Positions 1-35,845 of a stretch of 60,677 nt of DNA are shown here, piece after piece. The position numbers and the translations under genes were made by a program. Every line of letters begins with the position of its first letter. The stretch's first letter is position 1. Origin of the DNA: an uncultured Clostridia bacterium (lineage in GTDB: Bacteria > Bacillota > Clostridia > TANB77 > CAG-508). The stretch spans positions 1 to 60,677 of the forward strand of contig CANQSP010000002.1 in assembly GCA_947626555.1 (NCBI GenBank), in the 5' to 3' direction. The notes beneath the pieces are model-generated. The model saw only the letters and a program-made list of their open reading frames with translations. It was not told the DNA's origin and searched no databases.

Positions 1-397
1 CGTAGGAGTCTGGGCCGTATCTCAGTCCCAATGTGGCCGTTCAACCTCTCAGTCCGGCTACTGATCGTCGACTTGGTAGGCCATTGCCCCACCAACTATC
101 TAATCAGACGCGAGCCCATCTGTTAGCGGATTACTCCTTTCCCACTAGAACCATGTGGTTCTTATGGCATATGCGGTATTAGCAATGATTTCTCACTGTT
201 ATTCCCCTCTAACAGGCAGGTTGCTCACGCGTTACTCACCAGTCCGCCACTAAAGCCATTGTTGTAAGTCAATTTCCACTTTCTTCGAACAAGTTCTCTG
301 TCCGCGTCCACATCATTACAACGACTTCCGTTCGACTTGCATGTCTTATGTGCGCCGCCAGCGTTTATCCTGAGCCAGGATCAAACTCTCTTGTTAT
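1..397 (-). rRNA. rrs: 16S rRNA, 5-prime ~395 nt only (rest lies beyond the window start)
   Basis: Reverse complement of 361-390 reads GAGAGTTTGATCCTGGCTCAGGATAAACGC and continues to CATGCAAGTCGAACGG. Reverse complement of 1-20 ends ACGGCCCAGACTCCTACG (universal ~340-357 region). The exact mature 5-prime end is estimated. Confidence 0.95.
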
Positions 398-652
398 TGT
401 ATCTATATTTTCAGTTTCTTCTGTATAATATATTGTTGCTCTTCTAAGAAGTTCACAATTTATTACACAATACAAACTTACATATAAATCATTTTTGAGT
501 TTTAGCTCTTAAATAAATTTTGGTTTTGTTTTGGTAGTACTAATTACTACCGTTTGGTTTATCTTCAAAGGTTTGTTTATTGTTTATTTTTCAATGTACT
601 TTGCAAATTGAATTAAATAATATTTTATTATTATTTTCAACAGGCAATACAT

Positions 653-682
653 ATTGTAGCATAATTACTCATTCAATGTCAA
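653..682 (-). promoter_or_regulatory. candidate sigma-A promoter of the rRNA operon
   Basis: Minus strand reads TTGACA (682-677), 18 nt, then TGCTACAAT (extended -10, hexamer 658-653). Long A/T tracts at 690-730 lie upstream and could act as an UP element. Confidence 0.5.
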
Positions 683-851
683 CACATTTTTTTATTTTTT
701 TTTATTTTTATTTTTTTATCTTTATTTTTCGTTGAAATTTCAACAAAAAGAAGTTTCATTTTTTTTGAAACTTCATAAAATTTTATTTATTTTTACTACG
801 CAAATATACTTTTTAGGACAAATTAATAATATTTTTCACTATAATCCTAAT

Positions 852-1079
852 TCATTTAATGTTCCGCATATAAACTCCACCTGGCAAAGTATTCCTTTTA
901 CTATTAGATTGTTCATTAATTCTTTCTTCATTTGTACTATAAGCTGAATCCATTTCATTTGTTTTTCCTGCACTATCTACATTTAGCATATTAATTACGA
1001 ATAATATAATTACTACTATTACTATCATAAATATTAAAATTAATGCTACTAATGGTATACCTCTTTTTTCTTTTTTCAT
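852..1079 (-). CDS. small membrane-anchored protein (75 aa), unknown function
   Basis: ATG 1079 lies 6 nt after AGGAGG. One N-terminal TM helix (IPLVALILIFMIVIVVIILFVI). Confidence 0.55.
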   Translation of the reverse strand: MKKEKRGIPLVALILIFMIVIVVIILFVINMLNVDSAGKTNEMDSAYSTNEERINEQSNSKRNTLPGGVYMRNIK

Positions 1080-1240
1080 TTGTGTTCCTCCTATTTTTTG
1101 AAAATTTTCTAAAATAAAATTTATTAATATACTATACTATTATTTTTATTCTTTCAATATTTTTTTACAATTATTTATATATATTTTTTAACTATAAAAT
1201 GGCAAGTAATCATCTCAAAAATAAAATACCTATAATTTTC

Positions 1241-8460: not shown

Positions 8461-8471
8461 TTCTAATCTCC

Positions 8472-8606
8472 TTTAAACTATTAGGGACGGGGTTAAATAG
8501 TTTAGCTGTATTAAAACTATTCACCCTTTTTCCCTAACAGCTCTATATTATTTAAAAACTCCTTAATTTCAGCTAAACTATTTAACCCCGTCCCTAATAG
8601 TTTATA
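8472..8606. repeat. mini copy of the nested-palindrome element (outer hairpin pair only, plus one degenerate module)
   Basis: 8472-8506 TTTAAACTATTAGGGACGGGGTTAAATAGTTTAGC and 8572-8606 GCTAAACTATTTAACCCCGTCCCTAATAGTTTATA are inverted copies of the outer modules seen at 12061, 20048 and 27834. 8513-8543 looks like a decayed third module. Confidence 0.85.
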
Positions 8607-11600
8607 TGTGATATAAGGCTGACTTCCTGGCGAAAATTTTACTCTATTTCCGTATTCTTTTATTAATGGGTTCACAATATCTACATTAAATTTTTCTGCA
8701 TCAAAAATATATACTATGCCATCCCTTTTTTGTGATACTTTTATTACATTTGCTTTTTTGCACATTTCTTTTATTCTTGCTATTTCTATTAGGTTTTCAA
8801 CTTCTTTTGGTATTCCGCCGAATCTATCTATTATTTCATCTATAATGTTTTGAACATCTTCTTCTGTTCTACATAGTGCTATATCTTGATATATTTCTAT
8901 TTTTTGACTACTATCACTTATAAATTCGTCTGGTATATAGCTTGATACATTTAAGTCTATTTGAACGTCTTTTTCTTCATATACCTCTATTCCCTGCATT
9001 TGCTTTATGACTTCATCTAAAAGTTTGCAATATGTGTCATATCCTACTTGTTCCATGTGACCATGTTGAATTTCTCCCAATAAACTTCCTGCTCCCCTTA
9101 TTTCTAGGTCACGCATTGCTATTTTAAATCCAGAGCCAAATTCAGTAAATTCTTTTATTGCTTTTAACCTTTTATCTGCTACCTCTGATAATAGTTTGTC
9201 TCTTTTATATGTTACATATGCATATGCCTGCTTATTACTTCTTCCAACTCTACCTCTTATTTGATATAGTTGAGCTAGACCTAATCTATCTGCATCTTCT
9301 ACTATTATTGTGTTCGCATTTGGTATATCTATTCCAGATTCTAATATTGTTGTGCATACTAGTACGTTAGTTTTTCCCTCTACGAACTGCATCATAATAT
9401 CTTCAAGTTCATTACCTGTCATTTTTCCATGTGCCACTGCTACATTTGCCTCTGGTACTAAAAATGATATTTCATCTGCTTTTTTATTTATTGATTCAAC
9501 TTTGTTATATAAATAGAAAACCTGACCGCCTCTTTCTAGTTCTTTGGTTATTGCTTCTTTTATAACTTCTTCATCATATTCTAAAATGTAAGTTTGAACA
9601 GGTCTTCTGTTCTGTGGAGGCTCGTATATAACAGACATATCTCTTACACCAACTATTGACATGTGAAGCGTTCTTGGTATTGGTGTTGCAGTCATTGTAA
9701 GTACGTCTATACTTGCTTTATATTGCTTTATTTTTTCTTTATCTTTTACACCAAATCTGTGCTCCTCATCTATTATAAGTAGCCCTAAGTCTTTAAATTC
9801 AACATCTTTGCTTAATATTCTATGTGTTCCTATTACAACATCTATTTCACCTAATTTTAATTTTCTTACTATTTCATCTTGCTCTTTTTTAGTTCTAAAT
9901 CTATTTAATAATTCAACCCTTATTGCAAAGTTTTCCATTCTGGATTTAAAGCTTTCGTATTGCTGATTTGCAAGTATTGTTGTTGGCACTAAATATGCAA
10001 CTTGTTTTTGATCCATTACCGCCTTAAATGCTGCCCTTATTGCAACTTCAGTTTTTCCATATCCAACATCACCACACAAAAGCCTATCCATCGGTCTTGG
10101 TTGTTCCATGTCTTTCTTTGTTTCCTCTATGCAACGAAGTTGGTCGTCTGTTTCTGCATATTCAAAACTTTCCTCAAATTCTTTTTGCCATGGTGTGTCT
10201 TTTGAAAATGCAAAACCTTTTATTTTCTGCCTTTTAGCATAAAGTTCAATTAATTCTTTTGCCACTTCTTTTAAATTATTCTTAACTTTTGCTTTAGTAC
10301 TCTCCCACTCTTTTCCGCCTAATCTATTAATTTTTGGAACAGCTTCTCCTGCACCTATATATTTTCTTATGTTGTCTAAATCGTTTGTAGGAATGTATAA
10401 CATATCATCATTCCTATACCTTATTTTAATATAGTCTTTTGTAACTCCCTCTGTTTTGATAGTATTTACCCCTATAAATTGACCTATACCATGATTTTTA
10501 TGCACCACATAGTCACCAATTTGTAAGTCTGCAAATACTACCTTTTCTCCTTCCTTAAAGGCCGAAGATAATTTTCTCTTTTTCTTTACATTTGTTTCAA
10601 ATAAATCTTCTCCAGTTATTACAATTAAATTCAAATCATAACATTCAAAGCCTTCTGATAGTCTACCTTTGGAAACTATCACTTCGCCTTTTTTGTATTC
10701 TACATTTTCTAAATTATCTACATATTTACTTTGTATTTCTTTTTCATTTAATAAAATTGCAAATTTTCTGGAATCCTCTTCATTTCCTGCTAATATTATT
10801 ATTTGCTTTTTAGATTTTTTTATGTCTTCAAATAGCAATTCCATTTCACTTTTATAATAATTTACATCTCTAAAGTTAAACACAAATTTCGTACTACTTG
10901 CATTTGAAACTCCGAAATCTTGCTTTTCTAAATATACTACCTGTTTTTCTTCTAAATTATAGACATATTCACTTATATTTTGAATAGACTGTGGAATCAT
11001 TTTTTGCTTTTCTACTAATGTTTTTATTAAATTATTATTCTCTATAATTATATTTTCTTGTCTTTGATTTACCTTTGAAAATTCATCTATTAAAATTAAA
11101 TACTTATCTAAATAATCTAAAAAACTACCCTGCTTTTTATAAAAACAGTTAAAATATTTATCTATTTTACTAATATAATTTCCACTTTTTATTTGTTCTA
11201 TATCTTCTTGTCTTATCTGCTCTAATTCATTCGTTTCTAGTTTTCCTTCTAAGATTTTGTTACATATATCAGTTATACTTTCTTCAATTAAAAATTCATG
11301 TGAAGGGTAAATTTCCACATTTTCTAGCATAACCGTAGACCTTTGGTCGCTAATACTAAATTGCCTTATAGAATCTATTTCATCTCCCCAAAACTCTATT
11401 CTTATACCACTTTTTTCACTATTAGAAATATCTACAATTCCACCTCTTATACTAAATTGCCCTCTACCTTCTACTAAATCATTTCTTTCATAACCCAAAT
11501 AAACTAAATCTTGCTTCAACTTCTCTAAATCATAGGTATCCCCAATTTTAAACTTTAAAATATTTTTATATAAACTTGTTTTAGTAATCATTTTTTGCAT

Positions 11601-11975
11601 TATTGCCTCAATAGTTGTTACCACTATTTTAGCCTTACCATTTTTTATTTTATTTAACGTCTCAATTCTTTCATATGGTAAGTCTTGACTTTGAGCAATA
11701 TAATCATAAGTTACAATCTCCCTTTTAGGAAAATATGAAATATTTTGTTCCTTTTCAAAATAGGCTAAATCTTGAATTATTTTCTTAGCTTGAATTTCAT
11801 TATATGTTACAATGCATATAGGCTTCTTAGAATACTCCTTTGTTGCATATGCAAATCCTATTTTTCCCACGTCAGATAAGCCCGATATCGTTATCGGACT
11901 ATTTTTTTCTTTTATTTTTTCTATATACTCTTGAAATTTTGGGAGCTCACTTAATTTTTCTATTATTGAATTCAT
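8517..11975 (-). CDS. mfd: transcription-repair coupling factor
   Basis: 1152 aa. CarD-like GDYVVHKNHGIGQF, Walker A GDVGYGKTEVA, IIDEEHRFGV, helicase C motifs LYQIRGRVGRS. AAGGAGA SD before ATG 11975. The last 29 codons are element-derived (see findings). Confidence 0.97.
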   Translation of the reverse strand: MNSIIEKLSELPKFQEYIEKIKEKNSPITISGLSDVGKIGFAYATKEYSKKPICIVTYNEIQAKKIIQDLAYFEKEQNISYFPKREIVTYDYIAQSQDLPYERIETLNKIKNGKAKIVVTTIEAIMQKMITKTSLYKNILKFKIGDTYDLEKLKQDLVYLGYERNDLVEGRGQFSIRGGIVDISNSEKSGIRIEFWGDEIDSIRQFSISDQRSTVMLENVEIYPSHEFLIEESITDICNKILEGKLETNELEQIRQEDIEQIKSGNYISKIDKYFNCFYKKQGSFLDYLDKYLILIDEFSKVNQRQENIIIENNNLIKTLVEKQKMIPQSIQNISEYVYNLEEKQVVYLEKQDFGVSNASSTKFVFNFRDVNYYKSEMELLFEDIKKSKKQIIILAGNEEDSRKFAILLNEKEIQSKYVDNLENVEYKKGEVIVSKGRLSEGFECYDLNLIVITGEDLFETNVKKKRKLSSAFKEGEKVVFADLQIGDYVVHKNHGIGQFIGVNTIKTEGVTKDYIKIRYRNDDMLYIPTNDLDNIRKYIGAGEAVPKINRLGGKEWESTKAKVKNNLKEVAKELIELYAKRQKIKGFAFSKDTPWQKEFEESFEYAETDDQLRCIEETKKDMEQPRPMDRLLCGDVGYGKTEVAIRAAFKAVMDQKQVAYLVPTTILANQQYESFKSRMENFAIRVELLNRFRTKKEQDEIVRKLKLGEIDVVIGTHRILSKDVEFKDLGLLIIDEEHRFGVKDKEKIKQYKASIDVLTMTATPIPRTLHMSIVGVRDMSVIYEPPQNRRPVQTYILEYDEEVIKEAITKELERGGQVFYLYNKVESINKKADEISFLVPEANVAVAHGKMTGNELEDIMMQFVEGKTNVLVCTTILESGIDIPNANTIIVEDADRLGLAQLYQIRGRVGRSNKQAYAYVTYKRDKLLSEVADKRLKAIKEFTEFGSGFKIAMRDLEIRGAGSLLGEIQHGHMEQVGYDTYCKLLDEVIKQMQGIEVYEEKDVQIDLNVSSYIPDEFISDSSQKIEIYQDIALCRTEEDVQNIIDEIIDRFGGIPKEVENLIEIARIKEMCKKANVIKVSQKRDGIVYIFDAEKFNVDIVNPLIKEYGNRVKFSPGSQPYITYKLLGTGLNSLAEIKEFLNNIELLGKKGE

Positions 11976-12060: not shown

Positions 12061-12404
12061 GCTAAACTATTGGGGACGGGGTTAAATAGTTTAGCACTTA
12101 CTTTATTTTTGTTAAACTATTAGGGACGGAGTTAAATAGTTTAACAACTTAATTGCTATATAGCAAAACATTAATATTATATATTTTGAAGTGATTCGTG
12201 GGGACCGTTTTAGAAAATGTTACGAACATGTGTGAGTTACATTTTCTTAAATGGGGCAACGCAAAAATATATAATATTAATGTTTTGCAAGTATTATAAT
12301 TAAAATTTAGTTAAACTATTTAACTCCGTCCCTAATAGTTTAACTGTTTCGTTATAGATTACTAATTGTGCTAAACTATTTAACCCCGTCCCCAATAGTT
12401 TAGC
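12061..12404. mobile_element. nested-palindrome element, copy A (putative non-autonomous MITE/REPIN-like element)
   Basis: Outer modules 12061-12095 and 12370-12404 are perfect 35-nt inverted repeats. Inner modules 12111-12145 and 12310-12344 are also perfect. The core has a 25-bp stem (12163-12187 with 12264-12288). No ORF over 28 codons. Confidence 0.7.
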
Positions 12405-19793: not shown

Positions 19794-20036
19794 TTATTTT
19801 CTTGTACCAATTATTATATTAATATCAAAATCATTTTTATACTTCTTTATAATATCACTTGAAAATCCTGCTATTTCATTTGATAATACTATAGTATTAT
19901 AATTTTGATTTACTAGTTCACTCATTTTACTGTCTATTTCTTCCGGATTTTCTAATTTTTCTACTCTCATACCTAGCTTCTCTGCCATTTTAAAATTTTT
20001 ATCATCATTTTCACACTTAATCCATGATATTTTCAA
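19794..20036 (-). CDS. small protein (80 aa), unknown function (weak V-ATPase subunit F-like pattern)
   Basis: TTG start at 20036 lies 6-7 nt after AAGGAGGG (20043-20050), which overlaps the left terminus of element copy B. Confidence 0.4.
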   Translation of the reverse strand: MKISWIKCENDDKNFKMAEKLGMRVEKLENPEEIDSKMSELVNQNYNTIVLSNEIAGFSSDIIKKYKNDFDINIIIGTRK

Positions 20037-20044
20037 ATTAATCC

Positions 20045-20392
20045 CTCCTTAAACTAATAGGGACGGGGTTAAATAGTTTAGCACTTATTTTATTTTTTAG
20101 TTAAACTATTAGGGACGGAGTTAAATAGTTTAACAACTTAACTGCTATATAGCAAAACATTAATATTATATATTTTGTAGTGATTCGTGGGGACCGTTTT
20201 AGAAAATGTTACGAACATGCGTGAGTTACATTTTCTTAAATGGGGCAACGCAAAAATATATAATATTAATGTTTTGCAAGTAAAATAGTTTAAATTTTGT
20301 TAAACTATTTAACTCCGTCCCTAATAGTTTAACTCTTTATAAATTACTAATTGTGCTAAACTATTTAACCCCGTCCCTATTAGTTTAAGGAG
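20045..20392. mobile_element. nested-palindrome element, copy B (termini extended to CTCCTT...AAGGAG)
   Basis: Outer modules 20048-20082 and 20355-20389 are perfect inverted repeats, and the IR extends 3 nt further on each side. Inner modules 20100-20134 and 20299-20333. Core stem 20152-20176 with 20253-20277. Confidence 0.7.
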
Positions 20393-27819: not shown

Positions 27820-27833
27820 CTCTTTTCCTTTCT

Positions 27834-28179
27834 GCTAAACTATTAGGGACGGGGTTAAATAGTTTAGCACTAAGCTATTTCTTAAGTTAAACTATTAGGG
27901 ACGGAGTTAAATAGTTTAACAACTTAATTGTTATATAGCAAAACATTAATATTATATATTTTGTAGTGATTCGTGGGGACCGTTTTAGAAAATGTTACGA
28001 ACGTATGTGAGTTACATTTTCTTAAATGGGGCAACGCAAAAATATATAATATTCATGTTTTGCAAATAATATAAATAAAATTTTCTTAAACTATTTAACT
28101 CCGTCCCTAATAGTTTAACTGTTACTTTGCAAATTACTAATTGTGCTAAACTATTTAACCCCGTCCCTAATAGTTTAGC
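27834..28179. mobile_element. nested-palindrome element, copy C (inside the acc/fab operon)
   Basis: Outer modules 27834-27868 and 28145-28179 are perfect inverted repeats. Inner modules 27886-27920 and 28085-28119. Core stem 27938-27962 with 28039-28063 (one mismatch). Confidence 0.7.
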
Positions 28180-35630: not shown

Positions 35631-35705
35631 AACACGGACTTTTGCGTTTGATTTTCAAGCAACAGTTGCTTAATGATTTGAAAATCGAACACCAAGGTCC
35701 GCGTT
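35631..35705. repeat. long imperfect inverted repeat (28-nt arms)
   Basis: AACACGGACTTTTGCGTTTGATTTTCAA (35631-35658) versus TTGAAAATCGAACACCAAGGTCCGCGTT (35678-35705). 23 Watson-Crick pairs and 2 G-U out of 28 positions. Confidence 0.7.
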
Positions 35706-35845
35706 AAAATTTCATTTTGTAACCCAAATTTCCCATCTTTAAAATTTATTTTTGTAACTCAAGGTCTACGCCTTTAAAATTTATTTCTATAAATCAAGTT
35801 CCCCGTCTTCAAAATTTATTTTTTTACTCAAGGTTCTTCCTTTAT
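35706..35845. repeat. four exact-period 35-bp tandem repeats (AAAATTTATTTTTGTAACTCAAGGTCnnCGCCTTT-like)
   Basis: Units start at 35706, 35741, 35776 and 35811. The right arm of the preceding hairpin resembles a fifth unit. Confidence 0.75.

Follow-up and report, generated by a model that had tools for sequence, protein, structure and literature searches.

Mirrored, copy-specific ends in a family of putatively REPIN-like palindromic repeats from a gut Clostridium

Introduction

Within a 60,677-nt stretch of DNA from an uncultured Clostridia bacterium (contig CANQSP010000002.1 of assembly GCA_947626555.1; hereafter the window), an intergenic palindromic element recurs whose two ends match each other within each copy but vary from copy to copy. 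A first-pass annotation, made from the sequence alone, had drawn attention to substitutions that occur in matched pairs at the two ends of a copy, and had taken them to imply either a long-range fold-back (of RNA or single-stranded DNA) under selection or a mode of propagation in which one end is templated from the other. How do the two ends of such an element stay alike, and to what kind of element do they belong?

Anatomy of the repeat elements

A combined repeat and pattern search revealed 14 matches to the module pattern in the window versus 0 expected, and all module copies were located in intergenic regions or at gene ends. The basic unit is a REP-like module of 31–35 nt, with a 9–11-bp stem and a 13-nt loop, (T/A)GGGACGGRGTTA, and as single-stranded DNA the consensus module is predicted to form a hairpin of –7.2 kcal/mol (z = –5.8). 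Every module has an inverted partner, with spacers within the pairs ranging from 6 nt (site C of L009, a contig of a relative described below) to ~270 nt. From the outside in, the full elements (copies A, B and C) consist of two nested module pairs (outer and inner), a 25-bp A+T-rich stem and a 76-nt core, and the spacers between these layers are not complementary (Table 1). Folding predicted that the entire copy B unit forms a single long hairpin on both strands (z of about –25 and –22). The private A-to-G change of copy A turns the loop into TGGGGACG, and copy C carries two unpaired mismatches, one at an inner-module edge and one in the A+T-rich stem.

Table 1. Positions of the repeat elements in the window and of the parts of copy B.
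Feature	Position	Strand	Remark
Copy B, nested palindromic element	20045..20392	.	20048–20389 of the first-pass annotation plus a 5-bp mirrored flank on each side
Copy B, left flank CTCCT	20045..20049	-	Ribosome-binding site (AAGGAGGG on the minus strand) of ORF 19794–20036; same junction in related genomes
Copy B, outer left module, REP-like TAAACTAAT-AGGGACGGGGTTA-AATAGTTTA	20050..20080	+	Private A at 20057
Copy B, inner left module, GGAG loop type	20102..20132	+	Perfect arm 20099–20136
Copy B, A+T-rich stem, left arm GCAAAACATTAATATTATATATTTT	20152..20176	.	
Copy B, conserved asymmetric core hairpin (..GATTCGTGGGGACCGTTTTAGAAAATGT...ACATTTTCTTAAATGGGGCAACG..)	20177..20252	+	
Copy B, A+T-rich stem, right arm	20253..20277	.	
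Copy B, inner right module	20301..20331	-	Perfect arm 20297–20334
Copy B, outer right module	20357..20387	-	Exact reverse complement of 20050–20080; mirrored T at 20380
Copy B, right flank AGGAG	20388..20392	.	Mirrors the ribosome-binding site; serves no gene; DO and RI have ACTGA
Copy A, five-part architecture as copy B	12061..12404	.	Mirrored G12072/C12393
Copy C, between accB and fabZ	27834..28179	.	Outer modules equal the consensus
Short element S, two inverted modules without core	8474..8604	.	
Module type TAAACTATT-AGGGACGGGG			

The ends of the elements often lie directly against gene signals. The left ends of S (8461–8474), B (20037–20050) and C (27820–27834) are located 12–14 nt upstream of start codons, abutting ribosome-binding sites, and the genes downstream encode a SpoU-type methyltransferase (S), an 80-aa ORF (B) and fabZ (C). 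The right terminus of copy C contains the stop codon and the last codon of accB (28175–28179). L004 and L050 likewise show element ends against gene signals. The right module of element S (8574–8604) is in frame within the 3′ end of mfd (ORF 8517–11975, minus strand), where it encodes KLLGTGLNSL; outgroup Mfd has KLQGARGTGEAPKLSL at this place, and the outgroup DNA encoding it is partly module-like at both edges. Elsewhere in the window, an intergenic tandem repeat (35704–35826; ~3.5 copies of a 35-nt unit) lies between mutS2 and an SDR gene.

Agreement between the ends of each element

Direct reading of the sequence confirmed the paired bases named in the first-pass annotation, i.e. G12072/C12393 in copy A and both A20057/T20380 and CT20048–49/AG20388–89 in copy B, and the outer modules are indeed exact reverse complements within copies A, B and C. 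The matching arms extend over 37 nt in copy A (12061–12097/12368–12404; 100%) and copy C (27834–27870/28143–28179; 100%), and over a perfect 40 nt in copy B (20045–20084/20353–20392). Since independent short-read contigs of the same strain gave identical sequence, L046 matching copy A exactly and L007 matching parts of B and C, an assembly artefact was ruled out as the cause of this symmetry.

The agreement between ends was then quantified over 13 module pairs (12 of them non-redundant) from the window and two related metagenome-assembled genomes (MAGs). Identical 31-nt arms were found in 10 of the 12 non-redundant pairs, a level that shuffling the right arms 100,000 times never reached (P<1e-5), and the arms of these 12 pairs showed 3 mismatches in total against a shuffled mean of 14.8. 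In the 13-row alignment, 98.5% of cells were paired end to end, with changes on both sides in 9 of the end-to-end pairs, and the covariation score amounted to 0.153 versus 0.059 ± 0.010 after shuffling (0 of 500 shuffles reached 0.153). The local hairpins of the individual modules gave a different picture. Variants at the top of the local stem were always unpaired locally, and those at module positions 8–9 were mirrored at the opposite end in 3 of 4 events while never being compensated within the module. Local covariation was confined to the closing C-G/T-A pair, which separates the outer from the inner module type.

Copy B illustrates this. As had been noted at first pass, its private change weakens the module's own stem, and the local hairpin is essentially lost: the single-stranded fold of the terminal module was predicted at –1.9 kcal/mol (z = –1.1, no better than shuffles) versus –7.2 kcal/mol for the consensus, while its end-to-end pairing is perfect. 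The variant module of copy A folds as the consensus does, at –7.2 kcal/mol. What is kept is thus agreement between the two ends and not the local stem, as originally proposed. Across ~700 bp of stems only ~5 unpaired events were counted, against at least 7 different mirrored states among the 13 pairs. Abundant unpaired differences at the ends, which the first-pass annotation had named as grounds for refutation, were thus not encountered. The mirrored end changes are therefore real and non-random, and the agreement between ends is strong, though not absolute.

The earlier view that end pairing is maintained consequently holds, but pairing is not the only constraint, because the modules are also strongly conserved in sequence. 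Among copies A, B and C, variable sites make up ~3% of the stems and 5% of the core versus 29% of the spacers, and variation within the modules is limited to a few positions, namely 8–10 (stem top) and 17–18 (loop). Several of the double changes are transversions, including a GG-to-TT dinucleotide change in L002, without a wobble intermediate. The T8-to-A variant of copy B is also present, again mirrored, in the inner layer of the L002 element. Given this recurrence, and given the whole-element replacement described below, some mirrored variants may have been inherited as part of a unit instead of being made in place.

One of the paired differences has to be read otherwise. The CT/AG pair of copy B, previously counted as a substitution within the element, belongs to its surroundings: on the left, CTCCT serves the adjacent leftward ORF as its ribosome-binding site, and on the right, AGGAG is flank. 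The palindrome of copy B thus continues for 5 bp beyond the element, into flanking DNA that is not the same in relatives. That the 4 bases in question are complementary would be expected by chance at ~1/256 per element, or with a probability of ~0.04 after ~10 elements. Next to this right flank, ATTTGTAAAT in the relatives corresponds to ATTTACAAAT in the window, which amounts to a 2-nt spacer inversion. The extension into the flank is suggestive of templated extension. We weigh it lightly, however, because it is a single case and the flank is ~20% divergent between lineages, and the direction of the change, in the window lineage or in its relatives, is uncertain.

Turnover at orthologous sites

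Further copies of the family proved scarce. A scan of GTDB species-representative genomes with a core 20-mer returned 5 loci only, a module scan of JGI metagenomes yielded just one G+C-rich chance match, and no matches were obtained in viral contigs with the core and module patterns or in plasmid and phage BLAST searches. The genomes reached via the P0002 and P0021 look-ups were likewise without the element family. Because public collections hold very few copies, we examined orthologous regions, which were reached through their flanking proteins. Two rabbit-gut MAGs, DO (CANQDO; L002, L009 and L032) and RI (CANQRI; L004 and L021), with DNA 78–94% identical to that of the window, carry the element family at the same four intergenic sites as the window, in different architectures. 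In the more distant relatives L011 and L022 these sites are empty, with no modules found there.

At site C, DO has just two modules with 6 nt between them. At site B, both DO and RI carry a single module layer with a core in the orientation opposite to that of the window. The outer modules of site B share site-specific TTAAAC ends between the window and its relatives and differ by the mirrored T8-to-A, a comparison which suggests that this variant arose in place. At site A, RI has a single layer bearing a mirrored T9-to-A, and T-to-C is mirrored in its A+T-rich stem. The DO element there (L032 15596–15849) is likewise single-layered; its loop holds an unpaired G/A, its centre is different, and a second sample (L048) agrees with this sequence. 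This DO element combines one GGGG-loop arm with one GGAG-loop arm, and its centre still contains GTGGGGACC. Site A is therefore wholly different between the near-identical DO and RI, the flanks of which are ~97% identical, and since the RI counterpart is a different family member, the whole element has been turned over at a fixed site.

The spacers that separate outer from inner modules in L002 match the opposite-side spacers of the window copies in reverse complement (86% versus 61%), whereas the core has kept its orientation. With spacers reverse-complemented and core orientation unchanged, the centre of the L002 element has been inverted between its inverted arms. Between the window and its relatives, module layers have thus been gained or lost and whole centres replaced at fixed sites, and paralogues within one genome are more alike than orthologues. 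All 7 assemblies of site B in the related species (L032 and the sample contigs L033–L038) have a single orientation, as have 2 assemblies of the window strain.

Some other repeats were encountered at these loci. In a related species, an unrelated element of ~290 nt (L022 ~9700–9990) lies upstream of the same 80-aa gene and combines inverted repeats of 35 nt with an A+T stem and a core richer in G+C. Both orientations of its interior occur across samples (L022, L023, L027, L028 and L031 versus L025 and L029), and several contigs break inside the repeat; this element is probably an invertible switch. In L049 (7254–9977 and 13451–13640), a JGI contig of a relative, site A holds three ORFs that gave no Pfam match, and site S carries a further A+T-stem/core hairpin with five tandem repeats of 12 nt (ATATTTAAAACA) after it.

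Relationship to REP sequences and their transposases

On L049, whose Mfd is 87% identical, the same housekeeping genes enclose a gene for a 252-aa Y1 transposase. In NCBIfam this protein is matched best by the REP-associated tyrosine transposase (RAYT) family NF047646, at 70.7 bits and hence below the curated cut-off of 80 (IS200 scored 20.7), and Pfam assigns it a Y1_Tnp domain with a C-terminal helix-turn-helix. The gene is bordered by three copies of GGGGACGGAGAAGTTGTCTTAG, a hairpin with the loop TGGGGACGGAGAAG and the loop start TGGGGACGGAG. On L050/L051, a 48%-identical homologue of this transposase is followed by a hairpin with the other-strand loop TGGGGACGCAAAACC. The transposase protein family is large, comprising 266 clusters (50% identity) at E <= 1e-30, and a PDB sequence search with the L049 protein gave no informative match.

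The modules of the window share the build of the L049 and L050 hairpins, with a different stem sequence and the loop (T/A)GGGACGGRGTTA. Different stems with the same loop beside RAYT-like genes is the appearance expected of cognate REPs. Because the same architecture flanks two RAYT-like genes on other contigs, the elements of the window are best read, judging from sequence features, as nested REPIN-like extragenic palindromic repeats, in which the modules would be REPs and the inverted pairs REPINs. In keeping with this, the family consists of a palindromic unit in many extragenic copies, forms inverted doublets, turns over at orthologous sites and shows mirrored changes. Frequent compensatory changes across the hairpin have been reported for REPINs and were attributed to hairpin-forming capacity (PMC3116915). 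The first-pass observation was correct apart from the CT/AG pair; the REP/REPIN-like character of the elements, and with it this precedent for compensatory changes, had gone unrecognised.

The putative link to a transposase comes from relatives, i.e. two other organisms, through a shared 8–9-nt loop motif and the common architecture. The 60-kb window contains no transposase gene, nor do the loci fetched from the two closest genomes, and no transposase or recombinase adjoins the copies in the window or those of L002 and L004. The GTAG motif that classically lies 5′ of a REP palindrome was absent beside the stems, and the conserved motif (T/A)GGGACG lies inside the loop instead. GTAG has been described for RAYT groups 2 and 3 (PMC8266576), and the rule may not extend to other RAYT groups.

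Other family readings were less satisfactory. A MITE of a DDE transposon was rejected: inverted termini are present and direct target-site duplications are absent, the flanks of S, A, B, C, L002 and L004 (7 junction pairs) sharing no direct repeat of at least 2 nt. The GC/GC at the element tips is self-complementary and is missing from S, B and L004. We found no support for reading the elements as G-quadruplexes, restriction sites (GGGAC) or operator sites. A promoter and terminator scan of copy B revealed nothing above background inside the element. In Rfam 15, the sole match of the window was a 16S rRNA fragment, and permissive Rfam scans of copy B and L001 returned sub-threshold hairpin look-alikes only. 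The 5′ part of a 16S rRNA gene lies at positions 1–396 (minus strand), cut by the edge of the window.

The core also occurs on its own. Three copies without modules were found in an uncultured Clostridium MAG (L001 ~805–965, L003 ~450–610 and L005 ~1285–1440), where it lies inside another long stem, which terminates in a T-run and bears mirrored transversions. Within the core, the inner helix retains a G.U and a U.U in 10 of 10 sequences. The module-free core might represent either a small RNA or a mobile hairpin distinct from the elements. Beside the core-only element of L005, an ORF (148–1152, minus strand) resembles, by eye, recombination-promoting nucleases of the Rpn/YhgA type.

Maintenance of end symmetry

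Template switching between inverted repeats is known to homogenise arms, invert spacers, generate multinucleotide changes and extend arms (PMC8604942, PMC13100816, PMC8794818, PMC7202029). Our leading explanation, a tentative one, is that the ends of each element are kept identical by arm-to-arm copying, through template switching or conversion. We favour it because the flipped centre, the gain and loss of layers and the replacement of elements are DNA-level events between arms. The modules would be acted on by a REP-associated tyrosine (Y1/HUH) transposase with single-stranded hairpins as its substrates. The inverted arms interact as DNA, and one arm would serve as template for the other. This would occur through template switching within the molecule, through repair directed by the hairpin in the long palindrome, or through conversion linked to recombination between the arms. 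A new change in one arm would then be either erased or installed at both ends, and purifying selection would hold most module positions constant, leaving variation at the few positions at which it is seen. The inner helix of the core has not been perfected by such a process, as it keeps its conserved G.T and T.T, and since it is still imperfect, any homogenisation at the core would be opposed by selection. Of the two implications drawn in the first-pass annotation, interaction between the arms at the level of DNA is thus favoured by the flipped centre and the 5-bp extension, whereas a selected RNA fold finds no Rfam match, sits poorly with the inconsistent orientation of the core and with the transversions, and is unlikely.

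Classical compensatory evolution of a REPIN-like element is the main alternative, which we regard as less probable. Here, a single-strand hairpin would be selected for its mobilisation or tolerance in the absence of any copying between arms; one-arm mutants would be selected against, and double mutants or their descendants would persist and spread as whole units. Stems that are ~10x less variable than the spacers indicate that selection does act, the REPIN literature ties compensatory changes to hairpin-forming capacity (PMC3116915), and both the occurrence of T8-to-A in another genome and layer and the replacement of whole elements fit a spread of symmetric variants. Transversion and dinucleotide doubles, however, require two independent matching hits via an unpaired intermediate, and because one extra mismatch in a perfect stem of 35–40 bp costs little stability, the selection involved would be weak. 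Compensatory selection moreover leaves the mirrored flank of copy B and the flipped centre unexplained. Whole-unit spread of variants that are already symmetric contributes whether the symmetry stems from copying or from compensatory selection.

As a more specific variant of copying, which we consider rather unlikely, a RAYT-type enzyme might, during mobilisation, cut out an asymmetric single-strand hairpin and restore the lost end by copying the other arm. If ends were rebuilt in this way, each copy would carry a private, self-perpetuating end barcode that limits ectopic recombination between copies, and the nested doublets around a core would represent a new composite class of REPINs in Clostridia.

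The first-pass annotation had itself raised the alternative that no ongoing process is at work and that the window samples three old master-copy lineages, each with symmetric ends long fixed. This is improbable. The sharing of T8-to-A with a different genome and layer (L002), the replacement of whole elements and the closer resemblance among paralogues than among orthologues do speak for lineages, but each symmetric variant would still need an origin, the mirrored states are many and the unpaired events few, and site B shares its TTAAAC ends with relatives yet differs from them by the mirrored T8-to-A.

Still less probable is that the elements are transcribed and that the long-range fold is that of a functional RNA, either a non-coding RNA or a processing or stability signal. 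The predicted folds are very stable on both strands, the core keeps its G.U while its apical pairs covary, and copy C lies inside the accB-fabZ operon and must therefore be transcribed. On the other hand, no Rfam family was recovered even at permissive thresholds, the core does not point the same way throughout with respect to its neighbouring genes and lies reversed at the same site in relatives, conservation of the modules concerns their sequence as well as their pairing, wobble intermediates are not in excess, and layers come and go at orthologous sites.

Finally, it is highly improbable that a site-specific recombinase acts at the modules and that the elements are invertible switches. The crossover region would then have to be identical at both sites of a switch, with variants tolerated only if mirrored and private variants rendering the sites of different copies incompatible. 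The centre is inverted between copies and the site B core between genomes, the outgroup species has an unrelated inverted-repeat element in both orientations at the same site, and variation clusters at few positions, but the 7 assemblies of site B in the related species and 2 assemblies of the window strain show a single orientation, no recombinase gene lies near any copy, inversion of a nearly entirely palindromic element would alter little, and the Y1 transposase link explains the modules better.

Comparison with known systems

Compensatory changes in REPINs and the homogenisation of the arms of inverted repeats have already been published. New are a Clostridial REP family with its conserved motif in the loop and with doublets nested two deep around a conserved core, and the occurrence of that core on its own in another Clostridium MAG. 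The copying mode of REP and REPIN sequences has yet to be settled, and REPINs in abundance have been documented chiefly from Proteobacteria, where they are described for RAYT groups 2 and 3 (PMC5581495). To this the family of the window would add a case from Clostridia in which a different recognition motif sits in the loop, the architecture is nested and the conserved core is separable. Its orthologous sites are natural experiments, comprising mirrored point changes, a mirrored flank, flipped centres and the loss and gain of layers, which bear on whether symmetry is kept by selection or by templated copying. On the practical side, the repeats break short-read assemblies of these gut genomes, and their position directly against ribosome-binding sites and stop codons allows them to change the ends of genes.

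Invertons resemble the family in having inverted repeats around a segment that occurs in either orientation and in lying just upstream of genes. In the family studied here, unlike in invertons, no orientation polymorphism was seen within populations, no invertase lies nearby and the interior is palindromic. With bacterial MITEs and modular repeats, such as Correia elements, pneumococcal BOX/RUP and Rickettsia palindromic elements, it shares a small, non-coding and intergenic nature, terminal inverted repeats, stable predicted hairpins and, in some of these elements, modularity; the occasional in-frame insertion of Rickettsia palindromic elements into genes also has its counterpart in the right module of element S within mfd. 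In contrast to bacterial MITEs, however, the ends of the window elements are themselves hairpins, and the putative association is with a Y1 instead of a DDE transposase.

All four kinds of event known from template switching at quasipalindromes and inverted repeats (the Ripley model), i.e. homogenised arms, inverted spacers, multinucleotide changes and extended arms, are found in the window family as well. This model has mostly been described for short repeats with short spacers, whereas the arms in the window are 31–40 bp long and 270 bp apart, bridged by further perfect stems, so that template switching is proposed here by analogy.

The REPIN/REP-RAYT systems come closest. The family departs from them in carrying the motif (T)GGGGACG in the loop instead of GTAG 5′ of the stem, in nesting its doublets (outer and inner) around a separate conserved core hairpin, and in residing in an A+T-rich gut Clostridium. 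Set beside the transposases of these systems, the homologue on L049 has ~250 aa and a C-terminal helix-turn-helix; the likeness to a single-copy Y1 transposase gene bordered by cognate hairpins is seen in the relatives L049 and L050 only. What the family has in common with REPIN/REP-RAYT systems is a short imperfect palindrome, inverted doublets that form a long hairpin, variable spacers, an extragenic location in many copies without target-site duplication, and compensatory changes (PMC3116915).
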